Both the position numbers and the translations under genes were made by a program. From Clostridiaceae bacterium (GTDB lineage: Bacteria > Bacillota > Clostridia > Oscillospirales > Acutalibacteraceae): a DNA stretch of 64,000 nucleotides. Below the pieces are notes generated by a model, which was given only the letters and a program-made list of their open reading frames with translations, did no database searches and was not told where the DNA came from. The stretch is from NCBI GenBank assembly GCA_021769555.1, contig JAETSR010000007.1, positions 32,017 through 96,016 of the forward strand. Reading direction: 5' to 3'. Of this stretch, positions 38,943 to 54,967 are shown piece after piece (positions within the stretch are counted from its first letter, which is position 1; each line of letters starts with the position of its first letter).

Positions 38943-41900
38943 AGGCCATATCTCCCTCCTCGAAGACCTCCTCCTGGAGAATGTTCATAAACACTGACTT
39001 GGCGTTGTCCATAAGCACGTCGAGAATGGTATTCTTGTCCACGCCGGTGCTACCACCGACTTCCATACGCCCACTGCCGGAAATCTCAAGGAATATTCTC
39101 TTGATTTGCTCGCCAGCGCTCTGGCGGCTCCCGCTGTCTCCTCGGGATTCCATCAGAATGGGGGAGGGCTCTGGCCGGTCGTTTAGGGCGTGTATAAGCC
39201 TGTCGGTTTCCTCTGTGGGGAATACAGTGCTGCCCTGCTGCCCGAGAATGAGTTCCGGTCCATCATCCCCGGCTATAAAGGCGTTCGGGCTCTCTGTCGT
39301 GCCGTTTGCAAAGGCATCTACTTTTCGGATAATCAGCTCCGGCCCATCCTCGCCAGCGACAAATGCGTTTTCTGCGTTTGTGGTGCCGCTTGCATGGCCG
39401 GGAACTGTGCCGCTGGTATTTACCCTTAGATTGAGAGCCGCTTGTGTCTGTAGGGCCGCTGCAACCGCAGTAGCGACCTCCCTGGCAGCCGCAACAGCGG
39501 CCCCCTTTGAGTTGCGTATGGAGCTGACGTATGCGTTAATGGTGGCCGTAGCCGAAGCTGCTGCCTCGTCGCTCAGGTTCATACCCTCGACGGTTTCCTG
39601 CATTTCTCGCTCTATTTCGTCCATCTGGGAGGTGAAGTCTGTGACCCAATCGGCGGTAGTGGCGGCAATTTCCTGCTGCTTTGCGCTGACCTCTCCGACC
39701 GTGTTTGCGAGCTCTGCGACGGCCTCTGTGTTGCCGCTGTTGATTGCCTCTGCCATGCTGGCGGATAGTCCTGCGGCCTCCTCTGTGCCCCCCTGGGCGT
39801 ATGCCATTAGAGCCTCATAGTTTTCCTGCGTAATGCCTAAGTCGGCTGCAGACGTGCTTTTAAGCACTTCTATGTTGGCTTGATAGTTGTTCCAGTAGGC
39901 GAGCTGGCTGTCGAGCGCGGCCTGGGCGTTTGCCACGGTGGCGTTCATGTACTCCTCAGATTCCATGGACGCCTGGTCGAAAAGGCCGAACTGTCCTTCC
40001 ATACTGGCAAGCGCGGATTGGTAGACTTCATCGTAGGCAGCGCACAGCTCGTCAATCCGTTCCTTCGTACTCTCAATGGCTGCGCTTACGGCCTCCTCAT
40101 AGGTGGGGGGTACCTCTGCTGCGGCCTCCTCTGCTTCTGCGAGTTTCCCCCAATACTGCTCAATCTCTGCAATACCGGCCTCGTTCTCTGCTATGCTGGC
40201 GTTGAGCTCATCTATGGCCTCCCGGTATGACTTAATGTCCGTTTGCCAAGCTGTGGCCCACTCGCCGCTGTAGGTGCCGTCCCCGTTGTCAATGATGTTG
40301 TTTGCCTCGAGCTCGGCATTGTAGTTCGCCTGAGCCTTTGCAAGCTCCTCGGTCAGTTCTTCGCGCTTGAGCAGCGCCTCTACATACGCGTCCTGGGCCT
40401 GCTCCATGCGCTGCTGTTCTGCCTGCTGCTCGCAGGCTTGGCGCATTGCCTCTGCGAAATCCACGGCGCTCCCGGAGGTCTTTTCGAACTGGGCGGCCAG
40501 GTCGGGGTAACTCTCCGCAAGCCTTTTTGTGACTGCTTCAAGCTCCTTCTCTTGGGCTCCCGTGAGGTTTGTCTGTGTGGCAAGGTCTTCATATTTTTGG
40601 ATAAGGGAAAGCGCTCCCAACTCCTGAGTGTGAATGTCCTCTGTACCGCTGTTATACTCTGTCCAGAGCTTATCAACACTCTCACATAGCGCGTCAACCT
40701 CTGCGGTGAACTCCTCGACCGTCTGGCGGCTGGCCTCAAAAGCTGCGGACAAATCGTCCACCTGGTACTTGAGCCGGGACGCCTCCTAGGAGGTCTCTCC
40801 GTACTTTTCGCAAGCCTCCTCGTACTCTGCGTTGAGGTCTTGGAGCTCATAATACTGGTTACGGGTAACTGCGGTCATGCCTGCGGTTTCGTCCTCGGCG
40901 TCCTCCATCATTGCGATAAAGGCTGCCCCCGCTGCAACAACTGCAGTTAACCCAATAGCTACCCAGCCCACCGGGCCAAGAGCAACATTAAGAGCCACGC
41001 CAAAGGTTGTTATTGCGGGGATTGCAACGGTTGTTGCGAATGAAACTGCCGCTATTCCGGCAGATACGGTTCCTATGCCTACCCCAACTGCAACGATAGC
41101 CTTGGTGAGCGTAGGGTGCTCATTGAGAAAATCACCCACGCCATTCATGACGTTGGCAAACCCGCTGGAAACCTTGTCAAGTGATGGCTGCAAGGCCTTA
41201 GTGAAAGCAGTGCTAATATTGTTGCTGGCCTTTTGCCATTTTTCCGAAAGGCTCTCTCCCGCTTCGGCGGTTTTCGCCAGTGTTCCGTCTGCTTCCTCCA
41301 GGGTGGCGGTAAAAGTGTCAACAGATACCGTACCGCTCCCGATTGCAGAAGCAAGCTGTTGCCCTGCTCTGCTCCCGAATGTTTCCACTGCGAGCGCGGT
41401 CGCGTCGGCGGCGTTCTCCATTCCGGCTATCTCTGCTATGACTTCCTGCAAGGCAGTTCCAGCGTCCTTGCCATCTTTTGAGAATCCGGTGACGGCGGTT
41501 CGCATGGCCGTGATGGCTGTGGTGCTGTTTATGCCTGCCAGCTCAAAGTCGGCCAGCATTTGGATGGTGCTGTCAAGGGAAAGCCCCGCCTGCTGGAAAG
41601 AGGCTGCGCCCGTAATGAGCGTGTTGCTTAGGGTGTCTACCGAAGCGCCGGAAATCTGCCCAGCATAAGCGAGCCTGTCCATTACCCTCTCTACGTCTTG
41701 GCCCTCGACGCCCCACTGGTTCATGACCTTAGTGACGTTTTGTACCGAGCCGACGACGTTTGTGCCAGTGATGTCCGCGAAGTCCAAAAATTTCCCGGTT
41801 ACGTCTGTAAGGGCGTCCCCGGTCAGGCCCATGCGCGTGTTGATCTCGCCAACCGCTGCCGCAGCGTCTTGCAGTGAATCATCGTTTCCGGCATACGCTT

Positions 41901-42525
41901 CGAGCATACTACTCCCGAGGCTGTCAAGAGCTGCCCCGGTTGCTCCTGTCGCATTTACGACAACCTTTTCGGCCTCGCTGTAAGCGTCAACGAGCTCGTA
42001 GGCTGCCTCAGATATCTCTTTTATTGTGGCGGTGATTCCCGCCGCCGCAAGGGCGCTGGCTATGCTATTTACAGCGCTGGTGCCTTTGTCTCCCATTTCC
42101 TCCTGAGCCTGTCCGGTCTCCTCGCTCTGCTCTGCCATCTTGTCGAGCGCTTCCTCTGCCTCCTGGGCTGCCGTCTGCTCAGATTCAAGTGCCTCCTGCG
42201 TCTTGTAGCCCATTTCGACAAGCTCCTCGGTGGTGTAAATGGCCTCAAGCGCAGATTTGTCATAGTTCCCGATGGCGTCAGTCCAGTAGTCCGTTTGGTC
42301 GGCAGCGTCGCTGGCCGATGTGCTATATGAAGTCAGAGAGGTGGCTACCCCATCAACGGACGAGGCAGTGGCTGTCGCGCTGCTTACAATCCCGTCAAAG
42401 GCCCCGCTTGCGGTATCTCCGGCCTGTTCAAACTGCTCCACCATGGACATACCCGCTTGTGATACGTTGGCAATGGCGTCGCTCATCCTGTCCACTAAGC
42501 TGAATACTGCGGTTAGGTTTGGCAC
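38932..42525 (-). pseudogene. Tape measure protein interrupted by an in-frame TAG at 40786-40788
   Basis: ORFs 40786-42525 and 38932-40761 share one frame: ...YGETS*EASRLKYQVDDL... Confidence 0.88.
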
Positions 42526-42597
42526 TGTTCCACCTCCCGAATTTTATTTACAAAAGAAAAAGGCTCCGCGCTAGGCGAAGTCTTTTTTACATATTCC

Positions 42598-43356
42598 TTA
42601 TTCTGCAATCCCAGCTTTAGCTTTATTGCGGGCATCCAATTCCTTCTCCCAATCGTCGCCCATCTCCTCAAGGGCCTCTTGGCGAATCCTCTCTCGCTCC
42701 TCAGAAGTTAAGCCAAGGATTGAGTTGAGCCGTTTTCGCTCGTCAATCCGTTCTTTTTCCAAGATTACATCAAGATGTTCAACCTCTCTCTGAGCGCGTT
42801 CCGCATTTATGTCATCGTGATTAAGCCGGTACAGTCTAGCCAGCCATGCAGTGGCAGCGCGTTTTTGACCGGTTTCGTGTTCAGAAGAAATTCTTTCGGA
42901 TAGTAGCCGAATGAGTAGGCGTAAATCGTCTTCCTGGCTGTCCATCTGGGCTGCCATTATTTTTTCTGGTTCAAGAAGGTTTGTACTGCCTAAAACGTCA
43001 TAATAGCGCAATAAAGCGCTGTTTGTTGTTACAGTTTCCTGTCCACATTCTGTCAAAATGTACCGTAGGGGGATGTTTGCTGCCTCCAATTCGGATTCAG
43101 AATAAATCTGCCCTACGCGCTCAATGAGTTCCGCTTTTTTTCTGCCAGCTTTAGCGCCTTTGGATTTTAGCAGGCTGCGGAGAGTTTGCATATCGGAGTA
43201 GGGCAGGCTTTGCATAAATGTTCCGACACGCAAATACCCTTCATTGCACAATTTGGCAATTGTTTCCGGGTACCCGGCAATATAGACCACATCATCCTGC
43301 GTTCGCCCTGTGGCCTTGCTTAATATTCTTATTTCCTCTGGTGACAACACATACAA
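42598..43356 (-). CDS. Moron protein with SAP-like motif and MuF-like C-terminal tail
   Basis: LRSLLKSKGAKAGRKKAELIERV; C-terminus matches that of the MuF gene. Confidence 0.75.
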   Translation of the reverse strand: MYVLSPEEIRILSKATGRTQDDVVYIAGYPETIAKLCNEGYLRVGTFMQSLPYSDMQTLRSLLKSKGAKAGRKKAELIERVGQIYSESELEAANIPLRYILTECGQETVTTNSALLRYYDVLGSTNLLEPEKIMAAQMDSQEDDLRLLIRLLSERISSEHETGQKRAATAWLARLYRLNHDDINAERAQREVEHLDVILEKERIDERKRLNSILGLTSEERERIRQEALEEMGDDWEKELDARNKAKAGIAE

Positions 43357-43375: not shown

Positions 43376-43894
43376 CTACAGGACTATCTTCTCGTACTTA
43401 TACCGCCATATATATTTTCCTGCCCGTTTCTGCTTTCCTCTTAAACAAGCGTTTATGCTGGGGAGGCTTACGCCAGTTGCCCTTGCTGCTGCGCTCTGGC
43501 CGGGGAACTCTGCAATCACTGACATAGTCTCGGGGTTTATCTGCAATATGGGAGTGCGGCTCCCATTCTTGGCAGTAGCCCTGGCGGTTCTACTGCCATA
43601 GTTGGTGTTCTCCTTTGGAGTAGCCCACTCAAGATTGCTGGCCCGGTTATTTTCGGGGTTTTCGTCCTTGTGGTTGACCTGCGGCTTTCCTTCCGGGTTT
43701 GGTACAAACGCCTCTGCCACAATTCTATGCAGCCTGAGCGACTTTCTTACTCCGTTCTTGCCCACAAGAGAAATCTGCATATATCCATGCTTTTTTCTTG
43801 TGGGCTCGAGAACACGGATTCGCTTGATTCTTCCGAGGTTGCTGACCTCGTATAGACCTTCATACCCAACTACCGGTTTCCATGTTTCTTTCAT
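43376..43894 (-). CDS. NUMOD4-HNH endonuclease with NUMOD1-like C-terminus
   Basis: ETWKPVVGYEGLYEVSNLGRIK; LHRIVAEAF...VNHKDENPENN..NLEW. Confidence 0.9.
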   Translation of the reverse strand: MKETWKPVVGYEGLYEVSNLGRIKRIRVLEPTRKKHGYMQISLVGKNGVRKSLRLHRIVAEAFVPNPEGKPQVNHKDENPENNRASNLEWATPKENTNYGSRTARATAKNGSRTPILQINPETMSVIAEFPGQSAAARATGVSLPSINACLRGKQKRAGKYIWRYKYEKIVL

Positions 43895-43902
43895 GGGGGG
43901 CC

Positions 43903-44295
43903 TCAGCGCTTACTCAATCCCGCCTTATCCGCGAGGTCATTTCGTGCTTTAAGAATTTTATCGTAAGTATCAGAAGTTCCCTTTAGGCTATCATTGAAGA
44001 TGTCTGACGAAAGAAGTGTTATCGAGGTGCTAATCGAGAAATCTGCGGCCTTATGAGCGTCACCGGTTTCAAGGTTATCGACGTACTCCATTTCGTCCTT
44101 GAGCTTGGACAGTTTTTCGCTTGCTTCACTATAGCTCAGCTTACTATCAAGATAATCATCTGCAACTCCTACTGCGCTTTTAGCCACAGAGATTGCCTTG
44201 TCGCTTGCTTTTGTTTTCCCTCCACATGAAGAAAAGGTTAGAAGAACTAGGATAAGGGGGAGGACGATAATAAAGAATCTGCGGAGATGTTTCAT
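43903..44295 (-). CDS. Moron lipoprotein
   Basis: MKHLRR, hydrophobic stretch, lipobox FSSC; has its own promoter. Confidence 0.8.
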   Translation of the reverse strand: MKHLRRFFIIVLPLILVLLTFSSCGGKTKASDKAISVAKSAVGVADDYLDSKLSYSEASEKLSKLKDEMEYVDNLETGDAHKAADFSISTSITLLSSDIFNDSLKGTSDTYDKILKARNDLADKAGLSKR

Positions 44296-44327: not shown

Positions 44328-44358
44328 ATTATACGCCCCCCCCCCCCCTGTTTGTCAA
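44328..44358 (-). promoter_or_regulatory. Moron promoter with a poly-G13 spacer
   Basis: TTGACA-AACA-G13-CG-TATAAT, 19-bp spacer. Confidence 0.85.
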
Positions 44359-44383: not shown

Positions 44384-45015
44384 TTACTTGTAAGTATCGT
44401 GCCGGACGGGGTGCTCCCCTTCCTCAATTTCCGAGGCCATATAAAAGAGCTGCGTTCTCCGGGGCATAGCCTCGAACTCCTCCATCCGTAGTCCATGTCT
44501 TTGCCAGAGAACGTGAGCCCAGTAGGCGGTACTCCCGGCCTCGCGGATTAGTTTTTTGCGTCGTCCAGCTCCTCGTCGTCATTAACCTCCTTGGAAAGCC
44601 CCAGCACCCTCATTACCATCCGGACGACGTGCTGGTACTCGTCGGTACGGAGGAATACCTTGAGCGGCATTTCCGTGATGTCGAGGCAGCCGTAATATTC
44701 CATGAGCTCTTTGTCCTGCAGGTTGGGGTACTGCAGCGCCTCGGCAATGATGTGGCGGGTCGCCCGAGCGCTGTCCTTTTCGGTCTTCCAGACGACCTCG
44801 CCGAGGGCAATCAGCGGATTCCCTTTCTTGTCGGTCGCCATGCTGCGCTTACGGTAGGCGTCGTTGATTTGGTTAATGCGCTCCTGGGAGAGCACCTTAA
44901 CCTCGAGCTGGATAACTTTCCCATCATCATCCTTGATGGTCTCCGGGCCGGGGACGGTGACGATTTCGGGCTCACGGTTTCTCATAAAATACTTCAAACT
45001 TTTCTTGTCTGCCAT
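44384..45015 (-). CDS. Tail assembly chaperone (XkdN-like; short form 44548-45015) with predicted -1 frameshift extension to 44384
   Basis: A AAA AAC at 44551-44557 just before TAA; the -1 frame gives LIREAGSTAYWAHVLWQRHGLRMEEF...TYK. Confidence 0.8.
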
Positions 45016-50644: not shown

Positions 50645-52018
50645 TTAAAGAATACCGTGAAGGTAATGCTGCTCGCCAGTGGATTTCTCCACAGTGCCGT
50701 CGGCGTTGAGGTTGCTAGGCAGACCCCTGGCCTTGAGTACCGGGTCAACCGCCTTAGCGACGGCAGATGTAATCATGTCCTGCACCTGCTCTACGGTCAC
50801 CTGCTCCTGCTGGGGTTCTCTGGCTTTGGCAATAGCCTCCTCCACCATCTTCGTAATGGCCTCCGGGGTAATGGCCTCCGGGGCGGGAGCAGGTTCTGCG
50901 GCCTTAGCTACCGGCTCGGTGGCTGCGGGCTGGGCCTGCGGCTCAGTGGGGCCCATAGCCTTAGAAATGGCCTCGTCCACAATCTTCTGAACTTCGCTTT
51001 TTGTCACGTCTTTGTCCTCCTTCTTTTCGGTGGCGTTATCATCGTCCTCGGTGCCCTCGGAAGTTTCCCCGTCCTTTTTCTTGTCGGGGTCGTCGTCGGG
51101 CTCCGGGTCGTCGAACTCTTTAAGGAAAGCTCCAAGGCTTTCGTAAATGCCCTGCAAGGTTTCTTTGTTCTTGCAGCTCATTTTCTTTCCAGCCTTTGCA
51201 ACTTGCTCTGGCCGGTCTGTGTGAATGGCTTTTGTGATACTCTCATTGCTGACGAGAACGTCTGCAATGATGGTGCTGAAATCCTCGAGGCACTCTCGCA
51301 CCTTGGCTTCGTCATTCTCATACTGCCAATTTCCCGTGTATGGGTCGTAGTGCTGTAGGGTTTCCTGGAGGGAATAGAAAGCGTCCCAAAACAGGTCACC
51401 CTTGCTGCGCTCCGCGAAAAGCTCTGCAACGGTTCCCTTTTCCACTACGCTGAATCCCAGTGCTGTGGCAATCTGTTTGAGCAAGCCTTTCTTTTCTCCG
51501 GCCTGCTGTTTGTTTACGTCTTCCAAGTTCACGTCCTCCTCGCTGTAATTTCCAATACCGCCCATAGAAAAGCCGGTAATGTCGCCTTTCTCAATGCCAG
51601 CCCAGATTTCGGGGTCGGTGACTTCTACTGTCATTAGCCATGTGCCTTTCCGAATGGCCTCGTCCTCGATTTCAAAGTCTGCCTTGGCTACCCAAGTCTC
51701 GACGACGGAGGCTCCTTCCAGCGGCTCGAAACTGTGCTGCAGGTCTACCTTGTCGCCGTTTTTGGCGTACCAGTAGGCTGCCTTGATGATTTCCTCCTCG
51801 GTCATGTAGTTGCCCTGGCTGTCTTCGGCCATTGGCTCGTACACTATCCCGGTAACATAATGGCTTTCAGCGTCGGCCTTGACGATTCTCCCATAGGTGG
51901 TAAACGCTGCTTTTCCATCCTCAGCCTTTTTCACCAGAAATTTTCTGAGGTTGGCGGCAGCGTCAACGAGGGAGACAAACTGTATTTTCGCGTCTGTGAT
52001 TTCATATGCCTTTTCCAT
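50645..52018 (-). CDS. XkdF-like prohead protease/scaffold
   Basis: FVSLVDAAAN, VTGIVYEP, GTWLMTV, ITGFSMGG; acidic/Pro-Ala C-terminus. Confidence 0.85.
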   Translation of the reverse strand: MEKAYEITDAKIQFVSLVDAAANLRKFLVKKAEDGKAAFTTYGRIVKADAESHYVTGIVYEPMAEDSQGNYMTEEEIIKAAYWYAKNGDKVDLQHSFEPLEGASVVETWVAKADFEIEDEAIRKGTWLMTVEVTDPEIWAGIEKGDITGFSMGGIGNYSEEDVNLEDVNKQQAGEKKGLLKQIATALGFSVVEKGTVAELFAERSKGDLFWDAFYSLQETLQHYDPYTGNWQYENDEAKVRECLEDFSTIIADVLVSNESITKAIHTDRPEQVAKAGKKMSCKNKETLQGIYESLGAFLKEFDDPEPDDDPDKKKDGETSEGTEDDDNATEKKEDKDVTKSEVQKIVDEAISKAMGPTEPQAQPAATEPVAKAAEPAPAPEAITPEAITKMVEEAIAKAREPQQEQVTVEQVQDMITSAVAKAVDPVLKARGLPSNLNADGTVEKSTGEQHYLHGIL

Positions 52019-52211
52019 TCTTTTTCTCAAGTGTCTTCTCACCTCCTTTCGCGGGTCTTGAGAAAATATAAAAAGCAGCGTTTCCGCTGCTCTCTACCTT
52101 GTGTATCAATTTCGTGGTGCCGCGAAATTGTCCTGAGAGGCCGTCAGAAGCCCTCGCACTTGCTAGGTATAGTTTCTCCTTGGTAACCGGTTTGAGGCCA
52201 TGAGTGGCACT

Positions 52212-52436
52212 CTAGCGGTCGTGAGCGCTATTGAGCGGGCAGTCTTCCCGCTCAATTATCACGATACCCTGCGGCAGTTCAATTTCAATATTGGGCTCAT
52301 GAATGGTAAGCCGCAGCTCCGGGATTTCACCACCCTTTTGATTGAGGGAAAACTCGGAAACATAGGCAGCTAACTCTACCCCGTCAATTTTTAAGGATGT
52401 TGCTACTCCACGTTCGTCCTGCTTTATCTGTATCAC
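52212..52436 (-). CDS. Small hypothetical protein
   Basis: 74-aa ORF directly after MuF. Confidence 0.55.
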   Translation of the reverse strand: MIQIKQDERGVATSLKIDGVELAAYVSEFSLNQKGGEIPELRLTIHEPNIEIELPQGIVIIEREDCPLNSAHDR

Positions 52437-52439
52437 GGT

Positions 52440-53408
52440 TTATTCCTCCTCGATTCCTGCCTTGGCCCGGTTTCTGGCGTCCAGCTCTTTCTCCCACTCG
52501 TCGTCCATTTCGTCGATTGCCTCCTGCTGGAGCCTTTTGCGCTCCTCAAGGGAAAGTCCAAGAATCTCCTCGCTGACTTTCGGCTGGGAGTTGCAGTGGC
52601 AGTTGATACTCTCCTCTGGTGGTAGATTGGGGTCGCGGGGGTACATGGGATAATAGGTAGTACCATCTGCTCCCACCAGCTCATAGGGCTTGTCAACCGG
52701 GACAGACTGGCCGTCCATATCAACGTGATTCTGGCGAGGCTCATTCCTATATGCCCCCGTGTGCTGCCATATTTTCCCAACGACCACAGGCGACTGCATA
52801 TATGCCTCCTGCTGGGCTACACTGTGAGCCCGCAACACCTCTGTAAGGGCGGCCCTCCGGGCCTTGTAGTATTCGTCCCGTATGCCGCTGTCCAGAATAG
52901 CGCGGGTAAACTCTGCTATCCCGTCGCCGTTTTCCAGTCCCTTCTCAAGGATAGCCTCTATTTCTTTGTGACTGTTAAGCTGCATGAGGTCTCCAAGTTG
53001 TTCACTCCACGATTTTACCCAGGCCGTGGTGCGCTTGGAGAGGGTCGTAAGTTTTAGCTCGCGGTCGGTTCTCTCGATGTAGTACCCAACGTACTCGGGG
53101 AGAAATTCCCCCAGCTTGTCGGTGAAGACCGTGGTGAGCTTTTCTTTAGCTGCGTCGTTTATCTTGACATTGGGCCAGACATCAGCAGCGAAGGTTTCTA
53201 GGTCAACCGCTTTTTCTGCCTCTGAGAGGAAATAGTCGGTTTCAGCTACCAGGGCCTCTGCCACCTCGTCTTCAATCGCCTGGGCGTATTTCACGGTCTT
53301 CTTAGGCTTGGCGTACCCTTCCGCCTCTAGTACATCCGCTAGGTCGTCGTCGGCCTTTTGGATATATGCGTCGATTGCTTTTAGGAGCGGCCCACATTGC
53401 AAACACAT
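52440..53408 (-). CDS. MuF-family minor head protein
   Basis: ARRAALTEVLRA, KIWQH, RQNHVDMDGQ, ESINCHC. Confidence 0.88.
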   Translation of the reverse strand: MCLQCGPLLKAIDAYIQKADDDLADVLEAEGYAKPKKTVKYAQAIEDEVAEALVAETDYFLSEAEKAVDLETFAADVWPNVKINDAAKEKLTTVFTDKLGEFLPEYVGYYIERTDRELKLTTLSKRTTAWVKSWSEQLGDLMQLNSHKEIEAILEKGLENGDGIAEFTRAILDSGIRDEYYKARRAALTEVLRAHSVAQQEAYMQSPVVVGKIWQHTGAYRNEPRQNHVDMDGQSVPVDKPYELVGADGTTYYPMYPRDPNLPPEESINCHCNSQPKVSEEILGLSLEERKRLQQEAIDEMDDEWEKELDARNRAKAGIEEE

Positions 53409-53410
53409 AA

Positions 53411-54967
53411 TTATTCCCCCTTGTCAATATCTAGGAGGAGTTTTTTTACTTCTTTCATCACGGCTACTACGGCGTCGTCCCGGTTGCTGGCGGCCTTTTC
53501 AATCTGCTGCTGCAGGCTCATAGTGAGGTTTCCAAAGTCCAACCCCGCGCTGCTCTGGCTCTTGCTATAGGCCAGCGGGATGTCTCCCCACTCCTCTGGA
53601 TAGTCCTCGGAAACCTCTCCAATAGCGCTCAGGAGAATCTGCTTGGCCTTGTTGGGTGTAAGACCGCCTGCGTTGTTACAGACGGTAAGAATTTTCACGA
53701 GGTCGTCCGGGTTGCTGATGTCCGGCTCGAGGAAGTATGCCTCCACATACTTGAACTGGTAGCCATTCAGCAGCCGGTTATTGACCGCCCAGGCAAGGCT
53801 CCTGCGCTCAGGCTGGAATACCTGCTCCTCTGTGACCTCCTGCGCTGTCTGGGCTGTTGCGCGGTTAAAGTCGGTAGTGTAGCCCACATAGAGGTCTGGG
53901 AGCTGAAAAGCAGACTGTACCTTTCGGCGGTTATTGTCCAGGTAGCCTTGGAAAAGTTCATCCTTTTGGAGTATGCTTGCAAGGTCTTTGATTTCGACCT
54001 TTGGCTTGTCCTGCTGGTCAAAGTCTGTCCGGGCGTCGGTCGCCTCTGTTTCCAGAATGATAAAAGCGTGTTGTCCGGCCTCTCCTTTGATTTCGTCCAT
54101 GTAGTGCTGTAGTTTCTCGTAGCTCTCGTCGGTGAGGGTTCCGCCCTCTACCATAATGAGCAGCGGCGTGTGTCTCCCGTTCCGGAAGTAGTTGTTATTG
54201 AGGTTTTCAGCCCTCCGGCTGCCGTCTACACCGAGAATCTGGCCTATCCAGCGGACGGTGCCGTATGGCTTAGTGCCGATAGCAAACTCCATAATCTCGT
54301 TTGCCTGATATGTTAATTCCAGCGTCTGCCCGTCTTCCAGGTACTTGCCATCCCGCATATCCATAATGCGAGGGTCGCCAAACTCCCTAAAATAGACGGT
54401 CTTCCCGCCTACATCCTGCTTATACTTGCAGAATTTCTTTTGGAAGACCTGAGCTTGGCCGTGATGATAGTATGTGGTGGAGACATAGGGCTCTAAAGGC
54501 CGGGTCTTTTGTATACTGGGGGTCTCTTTGAGAAATTCAATCTGGGTGACCTCTCCTATCGCATTGCGTATAACCTCAATGTAAGAAATGCCGTATGTCT
54601 CCCGGGCTTCGATGATGTCCTCAAACACCTCTTTGGTGTCCTGCTCGATGTTCAACAGCTCGATAATCTCCTGGGCCCTCTGGAACTCTGCGGCCATTTC
54701 CGGCGTTTCCTCGACGTCCTCTATGTATCTTACGCCGATACCAAACCCGGCAATATTGTTCTTATAGGCCCGTATGCACTGGGGAAGGATGGTGCTATTC
54801 TCCACCAATGCTTCAAGCCCCAGCATATCGTTTACGGGGGTTATCCAATCCCCTGCGTTGCGTGCCTCCTGAGTGGTGATTTGGGTTGGAGTTTCTGCTT
54901 TCTGTACGGGGGCCTGCTGCCTCTCCTTGATAACTCGTACCTGCATAGCTGCTTTGGCTTTAGGCAC
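53411..54967 (-). CDS. Portal protein
   Basis: YFRNGRHTP, FNRATAQTA, VFQPER; follows the terminase. Confidence 0.9.
   Translation of the reverse strand: MPKAKAAMQVRVIKERQQAPVQKAETPTQITTQEARNAGDWITPVNDMLGLEALVENSTILPQCIRAYKNNIAGFGIGVRYIEDVEETPEMAAEFQRAQEIIELLNIEQDTKEVFEDIIEARETYGISYIEVIRNAIGEVTQIEFLKETPSIQKTRPLEPYVSTTYYHHGQAQVFQKKFCKYKQDVGGKTVYFREFGDPRIMDMRDGKYLEDGQTLELTYQANEIMEFAIGTKPYGTVRWIGQILGVDGSRRAENLNNNYFRNGRHTPLLIMVEGGTLTDESYEKLQHYMDEIKGEAGQHAFIILETEATDARTDFDQQDKPKVEIKDLASILQKDELFQGYLDNNRRKVQSAFQLPDLYVGYTTDFNRATAQTAQEVTEEQVFQPERRSLAWAVNNRLLNGYQFKYVEAYFLEPDISNPDDLVKILTVCNNAGGLTPNKAKQILLSAIGEVSEDYPEEWGDIPLAYSKSQSSAGLDFGNLTMSLQQQIEKAASNRDDAVVAVMKEVKKLLLDIDKGE

Follow-up and report, generated by a model that had tools for sequence, protein, structure and literature searches.

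Late genes of the phage

The window (the whole stretch of DNA that was analyzed, 64,000 nucleotides) contains the late region of a PBSX-like myophage, which is encoded on the minus strand. Its genes are, in order, portal, MuF, a 74-aa ORF, an XkdF-type protease-scaffold gene, capsid, sheath, and tube genes, an XkdN-like chaperone gene, a three-gene insert, and the tape measure gene. The portal gene (53411..54967, minus strand) is directly upstream of MuF, and this gene order is as in the relative L018 (PF04860 recorded). The XkdF-type gene (50645..52042, minus strand; PF14550, E = 7.6e-32) encodes a fusion of prohead protease and scaffold.

MuF (52440..53408, minus strand; 322 aa) is a minor head protein of the SPP1 gp7/Mu F family. 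It matches PF04233 at residues 149-273 (45.1 bits, cut-off 29.6, E = 1.9e-11) and the head morphogenesis family phrog_2468 (E = 2e-68), and its match to the gp7 model TIGR01641 is weak (12.4 bits, cut-off 39.65). The PF04233 match stops short of the C-terminal tail of the protein. In the AF2 model (pLDDT 87.3), the tail is one helix comprising residues 287-316 at pLDDT 90-95. No relatives were found in the PDB by sequence or by fold. Several MuF PHROG profiles align across part of the tail, so a helix past the MuF core seems to be common among MuF proteins. The protein in the window ends one residue past the tail motif described below and is a "short MuF", without the toxin extension of MuF polymorphic toxins.

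Directly past the short MuF gene is the 74-aa ORF (52212..52436, minus strand), which is conserved in the related phage L010 (73 aa) and matches no family. It occupies the slot where MuF toxins have an immunity gene, and the MuF of the window has no toxin. The first part of the tape measure gene (40786..42525, minus strand; PF10145) ends at a single in-frame stop at 40786-40788, which splits the gene into ORFs of 579 and 609 aa in the same frame (...YGETS*EASRLKY); the relatives L001, L002, and L003 have an undivided tape measure protein of 1255-1336 aa. The major capsid protein of L001 (1231-2280) has a weak CBM_5_12 match on record.

An accessory cassette upstream of the tape measure gene

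The three-gene insert is a cassette that encodes a lipoprotein, a NUMOD4/HNH_3 endonuclease, and the accessory ("moron") protein that is the subject of this report. Its upstream boundary is the XkdN-like tail assembly chaperone gene (44548..45015, minus strand; PF08890), and its downstream boundary is the tape measure gene. An insert is present at this site in the window, in L001, and in L003. L002 and L010 lack it, and their tape measure gene comes immediately after the chaperone gene. The cassette is therefore a genuine insertion of the moron type, as its designation in the earlier note implied.

The cassette begins with the lipoprotein gene (43903..44295, minus strand; 130 aa), and the product may be a superinfection-exclusion factor. 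A homologue in L010 (1659-2054; 47% identity, E = 3e-35) also precedes a gene with the tail motif. The two tail-bearing genes encode different N-domains and are located at different genome sites, and it seems that lipoprotein gene and tail-bearing gene travel together. The second gene (43376..43894, minus strand) encodes a homing-type endonuclease with NUMOD4 and HNH_3 domains in Pfam and is directly upstream of the moron gene. It is 61% identical to its counterpart in L001 (8151-8669), which has the same position. The moron proteins of the two phages are only 52% identical, and the linkage of endonuclease gene and moron gene is therefore old; it may be related to mobility of the cassette.

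The cassette runs in the sense direction of the late operon and also has a predicted promoter of its own. This promoter (44328..44358, minus strand) was read directly from the sequence as TTGACA, a 19-nt spacer including a run of 13 G, and TATAAT; the spacer is outside the 16-18 nt range of the promoter scan. L003 has a homologous TTGACA promoter region upstream of its moron gene, without the G tract. The 13-G run makes the cassette promoter a candidate for phase variation. A terminator-like hairpin with a T-run (42564..42580, minus strand) is located past the moron stop codon, just before the tape measure gene; it is a weak prediction, the count of such sites not being above that in shuffled sequence.

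The accessory protein and its family

The moron gene (42598..43356, minus strand; 252 aa) starts with TTG, 8 nt past a GGAGGG ribosome-binding site. The protein consists of a helical N-domain with a SAP-like motif at residues of about 56-84, a long helix (182-214), and a C-terminal module shared with MuF. It has no Pfam match and hence neither a MuF domain (PF04233) nor a toxin domain. The earlier note described the part outside the tail as SAP-like. The window protein itself scores 12.2 bits against the SAP domain PF02037 (cut-off 23.9), and the description holds at the level of the family: homologue P0002 has PF02037 on record, and P0194, another carrier of the tail motif, scores 28.1 bits. 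The AF2 model made from the alignment (pLDDT 87.8) has a confident, all-helical N-domain. In Foldseek searches its fold matches "SAP domain" proteins of uncultured phages in BFVD (E 5e-7 to 1e-5, TM 0.5-0.57), and there is a weak structural match to the SAP and TPR part of FAN1. The N-domain is probably of SAP type and DNA-binding.

The moron family is rare. The first search yielded five clusters with 47-98% identity (P0001-P0005), and a profile search added six more distant homologues, for 11 aligned in all. A scan of IMG/VR with the moron alignment returned tails only and no full-length moron homologue.

A C-terminal peptide common to the accessory protein and MuF

The last 40 residues of the moron protein and MuF are shared, with 29 of 40 positions identical and 37 of 40 positive (BLASTP, E = 6e-16). 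This sharing was the central observation of the earlier note, which also held that the remainder of the moron was unrelated to MuF; BLASTP indeed found no significant similarity between the two proteins outside this segment. The moron protein ends in ILGLTSEERERIRQEALEEMGDDWEKELDARNKAKAGIAE and MuF ends in ILGLSLEERKRLQQEAIDEMDDEWEKELDARNRAKAGIEEE. The module spans residues 213-252 of the moron (42601..42720, minus strand), where it is the most conserved region of the family, and residues 282-322 of MuF (52443..52565, minus strand). It is about 40 residues long with the core LG-x-x-x-EER ... W-E-K-E-L-D-x-x-N-x-A-K-A-G-I, in which the 15 residues WEKELDxxNxAKAGI are near-invariant and common to unrelated carrier proteins.

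The MuF tail is net acidic, with 14 acidic and 7 basic residues. Its hydrophobic residues, read from the sequence, are spaced i, i+4 (L293, A297, M301, W305, L309), which suggests an amphipathic acidic helix with a single hydrophobic face that is predicted to bind a partner. The moron tail is modeled less confidently, as two helices (218-231 and 234-247) at pLDDT 66-77.

At the DNA level the two tails have diverged. Of the differences in 37 aligned codons, 23 are synonymous and 14 non-synonymous (pS about 1.0, which is saturated; pN 0.16), and the longest identical run is about 9 nt. The earlier statement that the DNA differs at synonymous sites while the peptide is kept is thus confirmed. Saturated synonymous sites and the shortness of identical runs led us to reject a recent duplication or gene conversion within the window, as well as a DNA-level attachment site or homology arm. 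Chance or low complexity was also rejected as a source of the match: apart from the E-value of 6e-16, a profile of the tail, searched against 1.84e9 representative proteins, has just 121 matches at E<=1e-3, and it matches exactly two sites in the 3.0-Mb genome from which the window comes. The tail is not a known domain, since it has no match in Pfam or NCBIfam even at E<=10.

Selection on the accessory copy

All 11 aligned moron homologues, which diverge down to 28% identity, keep the tail, and two of them (P0102 and P0193) have lost the SAP segment and retained it. Mean pairwise identity among the 11 homologues is 0.60 in the tail and 0.28-0.51 in the other regions. In the five moron genes with DNA available, pS is saturated throughout (0.69-1.11), and pN is 0.13-0.23 in the tail against 0.18-0.39 in the N-domain, or about half. 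All tail copies compared, including the two copies in one phage, have saturated pS (0.77-1.1) and low pN (0.08-0.24). Because synonymous sites are saturated, pN is low, and the tail is the best-conserved part of the 11 homologues, purifying selection acts on the accessory tail copy itself. The earlier note had reasoned that its reading would fall if homologues mostly lacked the tail or if dN/dS were near 1; neither was found.

One decayed member of the family was seen. In L030 (5342-5557), a 71-aa remnant has only the last helix and the tail left, and in it an otherwise invariant W is replaced by C and a D by N, which shows what tail decay looks like when it happens. The remnant is flanked by genes for a sigma-like regulator and an RHH protein, and a motif-bearing MuF gene follows 4.6 kb downstream.

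Occurrence of the tail among proteins

Tail profile A3 (45 positions, built from six tails) was searched against 1.84 billion representative proteins at E<=1e-3. It matched 121 clusters, 69 of which are MuF proteins. In 55 of these MuF clusters the motif is followed by at least 60 further residues, and 14 end at the motif. The motif is C-terminal in six clusters of the SAP/moron family and in six clusters with other N-terminal regions, and one cluster (P0161) has another N-domain followed by the motif and TPR. In 23 clusters the motif is near the N-terminus and at least 60 residues follow; most of the metagenomic contigs are short, and some of these representatives are probably truncated gene calls of MuF toxins. 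The other 16 clusters are short pieces.

In the 55 long MuF clusters, the motif joins the MuF domain to a C-terminal extension. Among the extensions sampled, those with a Pfam match have EndoU or ADP-ribosyltransferase toxin domains, and the sampled long MuF forms with the motif are known MuF polymorphic toxins. The piece P0125 shows no MuF part and has a Zeta toxin domain after the motif. Among the non-MuF proteins that carry the motif C-terminally, three unrelated N-domains are represented, namely those of the SAP family, of P0135/P0162/P0161, and of P0116. The SAP-type domain precedes the motif in morons and follows it in P0188, P0194, P0145, and P0208 (BLASTP E 1e-7 to 1e-17), so both module orders occur. 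One short peptide is thus found on a head protein, MuF, and on three otherwise unrelated N-domain families, and the tail motif is a portable, position-independent module. It is a C-terminal MuF element in a lineage of PBSX-like myophages of gut Clostridia.

Carriers are rare. Among 401 genomes of the same family as the genome of the window, five carry the motif, and two copies occur only in the genome of the window. Deposited phage records contain only two tail-only matches, one annotated as "minor head protein" and one in an unannotated record. The author of the earlier note knew of no description of the shared tail, and we likewise found no published account. No model in Pfam or NCBIfam covers the motif, and the segment is not described in the papers on MuF toxins (PMC5576092; PMC5512222).

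Gene neighborhoods of tail-bearing genes

The accessory tail-bearing gene is just upstream of the tape measure gene in the window, in L001 (with the HNH gene), and in L003. In L002 (moron family) and L010 (a different N-domain), it is part of the head module, where it separates the MuF gene from the prohead protease gene. In L004, L005, and L030, its neighbors are genes for a sigma-like regulator on one side and an RHH protein on the other, and the packaging genes are downstream. P0161 is encoded past the lysis genes in L016, and the genes for P0116, P0188, and P0194 are beside HTH genes. A motif-bearing MuF accompanies the accessory carrier in six of six phages with a head module on record (the window, L002, L010, L030/G408, G402, and G403). 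Co-variation of the accessory tail with the MuF tail of its own phage was not significant in the five pairs compared; the cognate MuF ranked 1, 3, 1, 1, and 4 of 5, which makes it the closest match in three.

The earlier note proposed, besides an address tag, that the moron is a decoy. A moron made by the lysogen would occupy the MuF binding site or bind incoming MuF, and would thereby disturb head assembly or the initiation of infection in related superinfecting phages. The layout of the cassette fits this proposal, with its own predicted consensus promoter, a terminator-like hairpin, and a first gene for a lipoprotein, a common superinfection-exclusion class; other carriers, in accessory parts of their phages, have HTH or RHH regulators and a Fic/Phd pair as neighbors. 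However, the resident MuF has the same motif in all six testable phages and is the closest match in three of five pairs, so a decoy would hit its own phage on induction. The position of the gene in the head module of L002 and L010 also argues against a decoy. In addition, SPP1 gp7 is dispensable for assembly (PMC6316719), so that blocking MuF would exclude other phages only weakly. We regard the decoy as improbable. If it is right, prophages would have a new means of interfering with related phages.

Mosaic arrangements are seen at the motif. In L018 (6001-7320), a gene for MuF, motif, and TPR is followed by early genes on the opposite strand. Starting exactly at the WEKELD core, the DNA of L018 is 96% identical to a P0161-type gene (L016, 3285-4313) and the region downstream of it. 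The arrangement reflects either recombination between two motif copies, with loss of the intervening DNA, or a chimera made in assembly.

Such arrangements raise the question of whether the motif is mainly a recombination junction, a crossover point for exchange of N-terminal and C-terminal modules as in polymorphic-toxin loci. The accessory copies would then be by-products that are held similar by gene conversion from MuF. Mosaicism centered on the motif, including the switch in L018, is what this explanation predicts, and it would also account for homologous lipoproteins (47% identity) that precede tail-bearing genes with different N-domains and for a cassette at four different genome positions. 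Its difficulty is in the sequences of the window: with saturated synonymous sites and identical runs of at most about 9 nt, neither recent conversion nor DNA homology can explain conservation there, the divergence of the two copies being too great for recombination. Constraint at the protein level is also higher on the accessory tail than on the rest of its own gene, and L018 may be an assembly chimera. As a full explanation, a recombination junction therefore seems to us to have little probability; it accounts for the spread of the tail and not for its retention, and it is compatible with the proposed docking function discussed below.

Possible function of the tail

Minor head proteins of the MuF family have been placed inside the phage head. 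SPP1 gp7, which is present in few copies, is targeted to the interior of the procapsid or held there by the portal, and it supports the start of infection (PMC6316719). Toxins fused to MuF have been proposed to reach the host with the DNA (PMC5576092; PMC5512222), and short transferable capsid-targeting peptides exist in T4 and P1 (PMC9024508). Delivery by MuF fusion and capsid-targeting peptides are thus already known.

Our preferred explanation, to which we would give somewhat less than an even chance, is that the tail is a position-independent docking helix for a shared procapsid partner, and that it would load unfused cargo alongside MuF. The route would be as follows. The docking partner inside the procapsid could be the portal, the protease-scaffold core, or the MuF domain itself; the portal and XkdF-type genes of the window encode candidate tail partners. 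An accessory protein that gained the module would occupy the same docking site, would be taken into the head as a polypeptide separate from MuF, and would leave the virion with the DNA. In the phage of the window, the moron would be the cargo, a protein of SAP type that probably binds DNA and is encoded in a cassette with a predicted promoter of its own. Such loading in trans would be the non-covalent counterpart of MuF-toxin fusions.

Several observations point to docking. The motif is located between MuF and toxins, it occurs on three unrelated N-domains and in either position, and it co-occurs with a motif-bearing MuF in six of six phages; together these strengthen the inference of an address tag made in the earlier note. 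The location of the tail-bearing gene in L002 and L010, between MuF and the prohead protease, also favors docking, as do selection on the accessory copy and the single hydrophobic face read from the acidic helix. Other observations point away from it. The predicted promoter of the cassette and its lipoprotein gene are typical of morons expressed in the lysogen and not of virion components, and HTH or RHH genes adjoin several carriers, which are located in regulatory or accessory regions. Accessory tails do not clearly co-vary with the tails of their own MuF proteins, and the motif is in only five of 401 family genomes. Finally, at pLDDT 90-95 the modeled helix of the MuF tail may be an integral helix of the MuF fold and not a free tag.

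This last point bears also on a different explanation, in which the tail is a generic self-associating or fold-capping helix that has spread by domain shuffling. It would serve oligomerization or stability and would have no link to virions or to MuF. A helix is predicted in both moron and MuF and is confidently modeled as part of MuF; N-terminal, internal, and C-terminal positions are all tolerated; and cognate co-variation is not significant, all of which agrees with a generic role. On the other hand, the 15-residue core is kept in unrelated proteins and is far more conserved than generic coiled coils. The module is confined to MuF and to proteins of phages with such a MuF (six of six), and it was found in only 121 clusters among 1.84e9 representatives. 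A generic helix is consequently an unlikely explanation in our judgment.

Docking can be extended to a more specific proposal for temperate phages of the gut, in which a tag of about 40 residues from the MuF tail loads unfused cargo at the MuF/portal site for delivery with the DNA. We hold this form of the proposal to be possible, and slightly more doubtful than docking as such. MuF is an accepted vehicle for toxins and effectors delivered by phages, but as covalent fusions only. If the proposal is true, MuF-toxin fusions would represent just one variant, the covalent one, of a wider system of exchangeable cargo. If the tail alone recruits a separate protein, the set of injectable proteins would be larger than domain architectures suggest, the cargo rule could be read from sequence by looking for the tail, and the tail would offer a small, naturally occurring tag with which to package proteins in phage capsids. 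The module, which is conserved and unannotated, also separates the constant and variable parts of MuF toxins and aids their annotation.

Relation to known systems

Structural relatives of the moron N-domain are "SAP domain" proteins of uncultured gut phages in BFVD (A0A8S5LJH5, A0A8S5SSB1, A0A8S5QJT3, and A0A4D6AMU6), which have the same fold. They are 320-369 aa long, compared to 252 aa for the moron.

Encapsulin cargo-loading peptides and the C-terminal helix-turn-helix of the P22 scaffold are C-terminal peptides that dock inside an HK97-fold shell or assembly core. The likeness is a C-terminal peptide on unrelated cargo, with docking in the case of the MuF tail being putative. The MuF tail differs in having no sequence relation to these peptides, and its partner may be the portal and not the shell.

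Capsid targeting sequences of T4 internal proteins and the packaging signal of P1 DarB are also short, transferable, head-internal peptides, and they direct proteins into the procapsid (PMC9024508). These signals are N-terminal, comprise 10-30 residues, and have been found sufficient by experiment (PMC9024508). By comparison, the tail described here is a putative signal of about 40 residues, is helical, is C-terminal or internal, and is shared with MuF. SPP1 gp7 (PMC6316719) resembles the MuF of the window as a MuF-family minor head protein encoded beside the portal gene, although the window protein matches the gp7 model TIGR01641 weakly (12.4 bits versus a cut-off of 39.65).

Among the closest known systems are the MuF polymorphic toxins (Jamet et al., 2017, PMC5576092; Iyer et al., 2017, PMC5512222), which share both the MuF family and the phage lineage with the window. 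The motif links the MuF domain to the extension in 55 of the 121 clusters, and the idea in common is MuF as a delivery vehicle. The moron of the window differs in that it is a separate polypeptide with only the segment of about 40 aa and with neither a MuF nor a toxin domain. A MuF-derived module on unfused, unrelated accessory proteins, in either orientation, is an arrangement that is undescribed in the MuF-toxin papers (PMC5576092; PMC5512222), Pfam, and NCBIfam.
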